From the NCBI RefSeq assembly GCF_003334385.1, contig NZ_QOWN01000087.1: DNA of 4,288 bases; one strand, 5' to 3'. Each line of letters opens with the position of its first letter. Position 1 is the first letter of the stretch. The position numbers and the translations under genes are program-made. Shown here in pieces: positions 588 through 749 of this stretch. The DNA is from Escherichia coli. Its GTDB lineage: Bacteria; Pseudomonadota; Gammaproteobacteria; Enterobacterales; Enterobacteriaceae. Below the pieces are notes generated by a model. That model was not told where the DNA came from and ran no database searches. It worked only from the letters and a program-made list of their open reading frames with translations.

Positions 588-632
588 CGGAATTGAGCAA
601 CACCCTAAATTTGGGTATTACCTCGTTAAAGA

Positions 633-652
633 TACTGTATTTATGAACAGTG
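633..652. promoter_or_regulatory. Candidate LexA (SOS) box upstream of the KilA-N/antirepressor-like gene
   Basis: TACTGTATTTATGAACAGTG matches the E. coli LexA box consensus TACTGTATATATATACAGTA at 16 of 20 positions, with the invariant CTG (635-637) and CAG (648-650) at the correct spacing. It lies in the AT-rich rusA/kilA-N gap, about 100 bp upstream of ATG 750. Confidence 0.55.
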
Positions 653-657
653 TATCC

Positions 658-686
658 TTGATAACTATTAAAAATCGCAGTAAGTT
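658..686 (+). promoter_or_regulatory. Candidate sigma70 promoter for the KilA-N gene (-35 TTGATA 658-663, 17-bp spacer, -10 TAAGTT 681-686)
   Basis: Hexamers read by eye immediately downstream of the LexA box. The -10 is a weak match. Alternative: -35 TTGGGT 611-616 with -10 TACTGT 633-638 overlapping the box. No experimental support. Confidence 0.25.
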
Positions 687-749
687 CATCCTGCATCAAC
701 GAAAAGGGAGTGCAGTCCCGCTCGTGGATAAAAATTTGTGGAGAAACCA

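Follow-up and report, generated by a model that had tools for sequence, protein, structure and literature searches.

A strong LexA box in a lineage-specific insert upstream of kilA-N: a candidate SOS-inducible promoter in the nin region of an Escherichia coli lambdoid prophage

The 4,288-nucleotide (nt) stretch of Escherichia coli contig NZ_QOWN01000087.1 analyzed here (the window) covers the nin/Q region of a prophage of the lambdoid type. It runs from the end of a gene for a truncated LexA paralog through the resolvase gene rusA, a kilA-N family gene, a DUF968 gene, the antiterminator gene Q, and a WYL-like moron to a late-promoter/terminator region, and its first 2.7 kb match Escherichia phage PhiR49_1 and Shigella phage SfIV at 96.8% identity. 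Between rusA and kilA-N lies a strong LexA (SOS) box, accompanied by promoter-like hexamers that face kilA-N. We give even chances to the reading that this segment is an SOS-inducible internal promoter for kilA-N, and perhaps for the DUF968 gene and Q, which was recently gained by a single E. coli/Shigella prophage lineage. As a prophage transcription unit controlled by an SOS box, the cassette would belong to a known class, of which this instance is, as far as we found, new to the literature. In what follows, we examine the box and the insert that carries it, the promoter and transcript that the insert may provide, the nature of the KilA-N protein, and the possible part played by the LexA paralog.

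A strong LexA box in a lineage-specific, AT-rich insert

The genes of this region are tightly packed, with an ATGA overlap at 192-195 between the paralog gene and rusA and close junctions at 1565/1567 and 2562/2580 on either side of the DUF968 gene. Between the rusA stop codon (585-587) and the kilA-N ATG (750), however, there is a gap of 162 nt (588-749), with a G+C content (GC) of 38.9%, or 34.8% over 588-699, as compared to 54.5% in rusA. A preliminary description of the window had singled out this gap as unusually long and AT-rich for such a gene string, and the measurements agree.

The same description had reported a LexA box in the gap, with the CTG-N10-CAG architecture and 16 of 20 consensus matches, which a recount by hand bears out: TACTGTATTTATGAACAGTG departs from the consensus TACTGTATATATATACAGTA only at positions 9, 13, 14, and 20. 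In line with this count, a consensus search allowing up to three mismatches returned no match in the window. The core CTGT-N8-ACAG occurs once in the window against 0.06 copies expected, and at least one copy appeared in 11 of 200 shuffles. The check that had been proposed, scoring with a position weight matrix, was made with a matrix built from 30 known E. coli sites, which themselves range from 12.6 to 27.7 bits with a median of 20.3. The box scored 21.9 bits, above the training median and as a strong E. coli-type LexA box, while the runner-up in the window reached 8.7 bits. No site of at least 21.9 bits occurred in 2 Mb of first-order Markov sequence of the window's composition. As a positive control, the annotated LexA site at promoter p95 of phage 186, which lay outside the training set, scored 27.3 bits and was the sole strong site in 10.6 kb. 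In the complete genomes of SfIV and PhiR49_1, both of which carry the cassette, no site other than the box reaches 12 bits. The strength and rarity of the box under a matrix checked on 186 p95, and its standing as the sole strong LexA site of two complete carrier genomes, both speak for SOS control. The box ends 98 nt and begins 117 nt 5' of the kilA-N ATG, and from its score we infer that host LexA very probably occupies it.

The insert that houses the box is confined to one lineage. Of 5426 complete E. coli genomes, 187 contain segment 580-990, which spans the gap and the N-terminal domain of KilA-N, as do five phage records (SfIV and copies, PhiR49_1). The segment is invariably between rusA and the same kilA-N gene, and its box-bearing 117 base pairs (bp) had no other location within E. 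coli genomes. The whole window was present at high identity in none of the complete E. coli genomes (best match, 97% coverage at 92% identity). In all other relatives the rusA/kilA-N junction measures 16-105 bp and is devoid of the box. The common allele, found in Stx2a_1447, SfII, mEp460, and many others, encodes a KilA-N protein that is 80-85% identical over the C-terminal two-thirds and about 50% identical in the N-terminal domain; its kilA-N gene follows rusA after 16-20 bp that contain no box and leave no space for a promoter. Relatives whose N-terminal domains are 84%, 80%, or 60% identical have junctions of 70-85 bp that also lack a LexA box. Homology with box-less relatives restarts at about 699, at a leader hairpin, and at the other end the last eight or so rusA codons belong to the lineage-specific segment (...YEKASCKLATR, versus ...YEKTAGAAA in the common form). 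These boundaries indicate that a piece of about 140 bp (560-699) was recently swapped in for a short rusA/kilA-N junction in one E. coli/Shigella lineage. The cassette occurs together with two or more immunity types. Neither the phage collection nor other parts of E. coli genomes yielded a donor for the insert.

Among the copies examined, the box is identical except for a G-to-A change at position 20 in SfIV and AZ187 that brings it nearer to the consensus. AZ187 is the most divergent copy (93% identical), and its eight flank substitutions against a single, consensus-ward change in the box favor SOS control. LexA control as a trait of the KilA-N family at large was considered and rejected: about 12 upstream-region types were distinguished in 79 IMG/VR loci, and only the E. 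coli cassette has the box. Scores of 11-12 bits in loci L041 and L072 came from a site starting inside rusA and from an arm of the conserved hairpin, respectively.

Table 1. Features of the window and LexA boxes of related phages and prophages (positions prefixed by L are in those related loci)
Feature	Position	Strand	Basis or remark
Truncated LexA paralog, last 64 codons of 108 amino acids (aa)	1..195	+	phrog_362
rusA, Holliday-junction resolvase	192..587	+	phrog_34, E 6e-58
Lineage-specific AT-rich replacement segment with palindrome, LexA box, and promoter-like sites	560..699		genome and phage distribution
Palindrome at rusA end, CGAGTTGC-aaatta-GCAACTCG	562..583		
Promoter candidate A, TTGGGT (611-616), 16-nt spacer, TACTGT (633-638)	611..638	+	6.5 bits
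LexA (SOS) box TACTGTATTTATGAACAGTG	633..652		21.9 bits
Promoter candidate B, TTGATA (658-663), 17-nt spacer, TAAGTT (681-686)	658..686	+	11.4 bits
Degenerate second box AACTATTAAAAATCGCAGTA	663..682		3.1 bits
Leader hairpin ACGA-aaa-GGGA [GTGCAG] TCCC-gc-TCGT	699..725 (loop 710-715)	+	covarying stems
kilA-N family gene, 271 aa	750..1565	+	ribosome-binding site GGAG at 740-743
DUF968/HNH-like gene	1567..2562	+	phrog_96; RefSeq annotation DUF968
Antiterminator Q gene	2580..2972	+	phrog_79
Low-GC WYL-like moron	3039..3656		between Q and late promoter
Methylase boxes	L002:8940-8959; L087:12348-12367; L081:5823-5842; L088:41021-41040; L090:41489-41508		22.7-24.0 bits
Repressor-gene boxes	L089:29167-29186; L088:31970-31989; L087:3829-3848; L092:3536-3555		25.1-26.9 bits

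Candidate promoters and the reach of a transcript

Promoters were sought by a strict consensus scan, with a threshold of 9 of 12 matches, and by a simple weight matrix for the -35 hexamer, spacer, and -10 hexamer. Candidate B (Table 1) ranks at the top of the 42,530 positions that the matrix scored on both strands of the window, and falls just under the 9/12 consensus threshold. Its -35 begins 5 bp past the end of the box and its predicted start is near 693, which places the box at about -41 to -60. Candidate A scores at about the 99.9th percentile of the window's candidate positions, and its -10 is the first hexamer of the LexA box; at its -35, AZ187 has TTGAAT. A second palindrome, ACCCTAAATTTGGGT at 602-616, overlaps the candidate A -35 and in AZ187 is degraded and uncompensated (ACCTTAAATTTGAAT). 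The degenerate box is weak and any regulatory role for it speculative; it is placed 30 bp from the first box, across the spacer and -10 of candidate B. That the box and the window's top sigma-70-like site share the same 35% GC lineage-specific insert counts in favor of SOS control. The insert looks like an SOS promoter cassette directed at kilA-N, the choice of hexamers between A and B being left to start mapping.

Experimentally studied prophages offer parallels for both the hexamers and the position. In candidate A, as in p95 of the tum gene of phage 186, TACTGT is at once the -10 and the first six bases of the LexA box (TTCACA-18-TACTGT in 186, TTGGGT-16-TACTGT here), a correspondence with an annotated promoter that argues, by analogy, for SOS control. 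The -35 is weaker here than at p95, however, and here a better promoter-like site lies downstream of the box; 186 is moreover a P2-like phage with a non-cleavable CI. The second parallel comes from the Gifsy prophages, in which a dinI-antirepressor operon is under the control of a LexA box that follows a palindrome and lies 1.3 kb past the replication genes (Lemire, Figueroa-Bossi and Bossi 2011, PMC3121763). Gifsy-1, -2, and -3 all resemble the present locus in where the LexA box and promoter lie, with the replication genes on one side and the late regulator on the other, in the palindrome before the box, and in SOS control that does not depend on PR, which here is predicted; the position in this nin region is about 1 kb downstream of the replication genes. 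The match in nin-region position, after a palindrome, with a proven LexA locus is again an argument by analogy. The two differ: they share no DNA similarity, and the present palindrome lacks a T-run on the + strand.

On the SOS-promoter reading, CI would silence PR in a lysogen and leave the nin region untranscribed, and host LexA on the box would hold the cassette promoter off. That promoter would be either candidate A, with the box as its -10 in the manner of 186 p95 and sulA, or candidate B downstream. DNA damage would activate RecA, LexA would cleave itself, and the promoter would fire to give a leadered, PR-independent kilA-N mRNA that probably extends into DUF968 and perhaps into Q. The outcome would be that a DNA-binding KilA-N regulator is supplied early, independently of CI and coupled to SOS, and that Q possibly gains a head start.

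Such a leader would include the hairpin just 5' of the kilA-N ribosome-binding site, which the cassette has in common with box-less relatives. Its loop, KTGCAG, is invariant, and its stem occurs as GGGA/TCCC, GGGC/GCCC, GGCGG/CCGCC, and TTTGT/ACAAA. In a set of nine upstream-region types, chosen by eye and anchored on the loop so that the figures are indicative only, 88.6% of cells were paired, changes had occurred on both sides in four of five pairs, and the covariation score was 0.656, as compared to 0.14 in shuffles, a value reached by none of 500 shuffles. The leader hairpin is older than the LexA cassette. It is not terminator-like on the + strand, and an Rfam search recognized no known RNA family in the gap, the hairpin included. 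In short-gap alleles, the hairpin and the end of rusA overlap. A natural 11-nt deletion (CTCGTGGATAA) at 717-727 occurs in all examined copies of the class that is about 96-97% identical, namely four E. coli copies (2013C-3264, GB089, and AZ187, with H119/A33 unchecked) and four IMG/VR loci; with it the lower hairpin stem is lost, while the upper stem, loop, and ribosome-binding site stay in place. Small open reading frames in the gap (643-753 on the + strand, 544-750 on the - strand) were rejected as genes, since this deletion shifts their frames and they lack a ribosome-binding site.

A search for intrinsic terminators found none that was convincing between 750 and about 2400, and the only candidates upstream of Q are weak, irregular hairpins inside DUF968, whose T-runs start at 2423 and 2523. 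Because no clear terminator follows kilA-N, an SOS transcript may run through DUF968 into Q. The DUF968 gene is probably co-transcribed with kilA-N, and Q is a possible distal member of the transcript.

The palindrome at the end of rusA raises the alternative that the box serves the opposite strand. Read on the + strand it lacks a T-run; read on the - strand it is an 8-bp stem followed by CTTTTTCG in terminator-like fashion. The box might control a leftward antisense RNA of about 110 nt that would start near 664, cross the box, end at the minus-strand hairpin (583-562) and its T5, and overlap the rusA 3' end. Besides this hairpin, such an RNA could draw on a minus-strand promoter-like site of 8.8 bits (TTGATG at 699-694, 17-nt spacer, GATTTT at 676-671) and has a predicted fold of -34.6 kcal/mol. 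We nevertheless consider it extremely improbable, given that it has no Rfam match, that its -10 is without a T at position -12, that the hairpin stem has one mismatch in AZ187, that the T-run coincides with Glu-Lys codons of rusA, and that the segment, being lineage-specific, admits of no comparative support.

A number of points weigh against an SOS promoter for kilA-N. The strict consensus scan of the gap yielded no promoter, both candidates having fewer than 9 of 12 matches. The -35 of candidate A matches the consensus in TTG only, candidate B leaves the box upstream of the -35, which is unusual for repression, and promoter-like hexamers arise easily in AT-rich DNA. SOS-driven Q in the absence of replication would seem harmful, which argues for termination or weak read-through. 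In 178 of 186 genomes the cassette shows an identity of at least 99%, and with copies this alike, conservation cannot show selection. Lastly, our literature search found nothing on the cassette or the SfIV KilA-N protein and no SOS transcriptome that mentions the cassette. Phylogenetic footprinting of the box was rejected as an approach, the copies being too alike and diverged homologues of the box segment being missing from phages and IMG/VR.

The near-invariance of the cassette, over which selection is undemonstrable, and the imperfect hexamers would also suit a box that LexA binds to no effect, as an idle passenger that came in on foreign DNA rich in AT, such as part of some other SOS promoter, and has had too little time to decay. 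The gene's nearest relatives, which work without the cassette, point the same way. This explanation is decidedly unlikely in our judgment. The insert has reached 187 genomes, with no fewer than two types of immunity among its carriers, and it combines the box with the window's best promoter-like site and a p95-like layout. In addition, the only box changes seen are improvements, and a search of the phage collection turned up no donor sequence.

Past Q, the moron has a GC content of 37.7% and is missing from SfIV and PhiR49_1; its relatives are annotated as WYL domain proteins in RefSeq, and PADLOC gives weak WYL matches (E 1.5e-4). It is followed by a PR'-like late promoter, TTGTGT-17-TAATCT at 3684-3712, and then by a strong terminator (AACCTGCCGCCTGGCGGGTT plus TTTTAT) that ends near 3771; 3684-3771 is probably a 6S-type leader on which Q acts. 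At 4242-4288, a partial Rfam match to the small RNA STnc100 (30.2 bits, E 7e-4, under the gathering score) is cut by the window end.

The KilA-N protein and the antirepressor question

The protein that the cassette would place under SOS control begins with a domain of the KilA-N/APSES-type fold (Pfam KilA-N at residues 10-114, E 2.1e-15), joined to a shuffled C-terminal domain (phrog_129). In structural models it looks like a two-domain DNA binder, with both domains of DNA-binding type. Pfam recognized KilA-N alone in the protein, and no ANT/KilAC, DinI, or AntA domain; there was no NCBIfam match and no relative in the PDB by sequence. The family comprises 3246 cluster representatives, and the C-terminal module recurs in relatives behind N-termini of the Rha, Bro-N, ORF6N, AntA, or P22_AR_N type. 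Iyer, Koonin and Aravind are said to have described, in 2002, the KilA-N, Bro-N, Rha, and Ant proteins as modular phage regulators. The present protein is like these (PF04383) in its N-terminal KilA-N (APSES-like) domain and swappable C-terminal module, and differs in that the module is not the ANT/KilAC of Pfam. The C-terminal module places the protein in a shuffled class of phage regulators often labelled "antirepressor" by annotation, an architectural resemblance that is no evidence of function.

The preliminary description had gone further and proposed that box and gene form an SOS-controlled antirepressor module. In that case, KilA-N would be a LexA-repressed antirepressor of its own or of co-resident repressors, and would trigger or coordinate induction in the manner of Tum or of GfoA/GfhA/GftA. 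The first half of this proposal holds up, in that there is a strong box, with promoter-like hexamers facing kilA-N, in a Gifsy-like position; the antirepressor and induction half does not. A module of this kind, such as those of Tum, GfoA/GfhA/GftA, and AntC of N15, would be recognized by a LexA box in the gene's promoter, a repressor that RecA cannot cleave, and homology to a characterized antirepressor. The first of these is present at the sequence level, and a C-terminal domain family with AntA, P22_AR_N, Bro-N, and Rha N-termini, commonly annotated as antirepressors, is also in keeping with the proposal.

The repressors of the carrier phages, however, are self-cleaving ones. Both the cI product of SfIV and PhiR49_1 and the AZ187-type (SfII-type) repressor contain a Peptidase_S24 domain (E 4.6e-26 and E 9.6e-19, respectively) with Ala-Gly, GDSM, and KRL motifs, and N1 prophage appears from its annotation to carry the same SfII-type repressor as AZ187. 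Because these domains and motifs are present, both carrier repressor types should be RecA-cleaved unaided, unlike the repressors of Gifsy, which are uncleaved. Nor was homology to a characterized antirepressor found: a BLASTP comparison of the KilA-N protein with Tum gave E 1.3, no similarity, Tum being the sole antirepressor compared directly (those of Gifsy, and AntC of N15, were left out). Tum, a DinI-like antirepressor, is not related to the KilA-N protein, and the Gifsy locus encodes a DinI homologue and small antirepressors in place of a 271-aa KilA-N protein. The known LexA-controlled antirepressors are small, unrelated proteins (PMC3121763).

The orthologues argue in the same direction. 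Because they begin 16-20 bp after rusA, with no box and no promoter space, they are delayed-early genes of the PR operon in most phages, without SOS control and transcribed only once repression has been lifted. Since most orthologues are expressed from PR after derepression, kilA-N fits a role in lytic development better than one as an induction trigger. Together with the absence of an ANT/KilAC domain and the DNA-binder look of both modelled domains, these considerations make an antirepressor function very unlikely, and the cross-induction of co-resident prophages pure speculation.

A truncated LexA paralog and the LexA boxes of related phages

The paralog gene, which lies 440 bp upstream of the box, was found in 60 phage records, Stx2a- and Stx2c-converting phages among them, invariably between dam and rusA. 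Full-length copies (L085:31875-32201 and L086:9173-9499) encode 108 aa that make up a DNA-binding domain and hinge with no S24 protease domain, and the protein is in this sense a truncated LexA. The SfIV copy aligns with the DNA-binding domain of E. coli LexA (1lea) over residues 2-69, or to 86 with the hinge, at E 7.5e-16; the paralog matches TIGR00498 at positions 1-91 only, and an Ala-Gly-Glu motif aligns with the LexA cleavage site. Helix III of LexA contacts DNA through Ser39, Asn41, Ala42, Glu44, and Glu45 (PMC3091678). The recognition helix of the paralog keeps four of these five contacts, with Glu44 replaced by Val.

These features raise the alternative, compatible with binding by host LexA, that the box is mainly an operator for the paralog, which would be made from PR following induction or infection and be unable to cleave itself. 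The paralog would bind CTGT-N8-ACAG and would either activate the promoter from about -50 or re-repress it after LexA is lost. Activation would have a precedent in gp6 of phage GIL01, a proven truncated LexA homologue that activates the late promoter P3, which host LexA represses and in whose control gp7 also takes part (Fornelos et al. 2018, PMC6182141). The end of the box 5 bp before the best -35 is an activator-like placement, the four conserved contacts and the LexA alignment fit with such binding, and at least one LexA box of at least 21 bits was present in eight of eight paralog-carrying phages and prophages examined, whereas lambda, which has no truncated paralog and was the single control, has no LexA site above 15 bits. 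The parallel with GIL01 extends to a temperate phage whose truncated LexA homologue, a DNA-binding domain only, is encoded near promoters bearing host LexA boxes. GIL01 is, however, a Bacillus tectivirus with no CI-type repressor, and gp6 uses a site of its own over the -35 and not a LexA box; the recognition helix of our paralog is nearly identical to that of host LexA.

Against a paralog operator stand the loss of Glu44 and the weak binding of the isolated LexA DNA-binding domain without dimerization, for which an interface in the 40-residue tail is hypothetical. The paralog is, furthermore, just as much present in box-less phages, so that there is no specific co-inheritance, and a specific coupling of the paralog to the box was rejected because it is 94-98% identical in box-less phages too. 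The association with strong boxes, drawn from eight phages and one control with no statistics, is a lead and not a result. On balance, we regard the paralog as a rather unlikely principal user of the box, and retain host LexA control of a kilA-N promoter as the preferred reading.

The strong boxes of the related phages fall at distinct places. The nin box described here is carried by SfIV, PhiR49_1, and the AZ187 and N1 prophages. Boxes of 22.7-24.0 bits lie in codons 3-9 (MKNTVKI...) of a DNA methylase gene 3' of Q in Stx2a_1447, mEp460, Ayreon, AZ187, and L081, in two variants that both read CTGT...CAG. A near-perfect box of 25.1-26.9 bits is found within the SfII-type S24 repressor gene, in the linker-coding part at about nt 164-228, in SfII (26.9 bits), mEp460, AZ187, and N1. 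In mEp460, two boxes of 22.7 and 21.4 bits, 28 bp apart (L088:23255-23302), occupy the promoter of a DinI-like gene beside the integrase gene; the pair looks like a classic SOS promoter and suggests several SOS-controlled units in these phages. The best LexA-like site of lambda, TACTGGATCTATCAACAGGA (L091:38660-38679, 15.0 bits), lies between cII and O and is within the range of weak genuine sites.

By analogy with GIL01, we tentatively propose, as something we would not expect but consider conceivable, that lambdoid phages of the SfV/mEp460/Stx2a-Stx2c group run an SOS-box circuit of their own, through a protease-less LexA paralog that reads host boxes. Its sites may be those before kilA-N-DUF968-Q, in the linker of the SfII-type repressor, in codons 3-9 of the methylase gene, which opens the late region, and upstream of the dinI-like gene. 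The paralog might take over these sites after the loss of host LexA, timing the passage from early to late transcription, and might even re-silence the host SOS regulon. Both the paralog and the LexA boxes that recur in related Stx2 phages are apparently uncharacterized, and are the more novel part of these observations as compared to the cassette.

Should the cassette prove active, a prophage nin regulator, and possibly Q, would answer directly to host LexA in addition to CI cleavage in about 3% of sequenced E. coli strains. The carriers include O104:H4, O111, O103, and O157 isolates as well as Shigella serotype-converting phages. An active cassette would constitute a second, faster SOS input to lambdoid induction, with a bearing on the expression of prophages and toxins triggered by antibiotics. 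Were the paralog circuit also true, it would represent an analogue of GIL01 gp6 in enterobacterial phages, Shiga-toxin converting phages among them.

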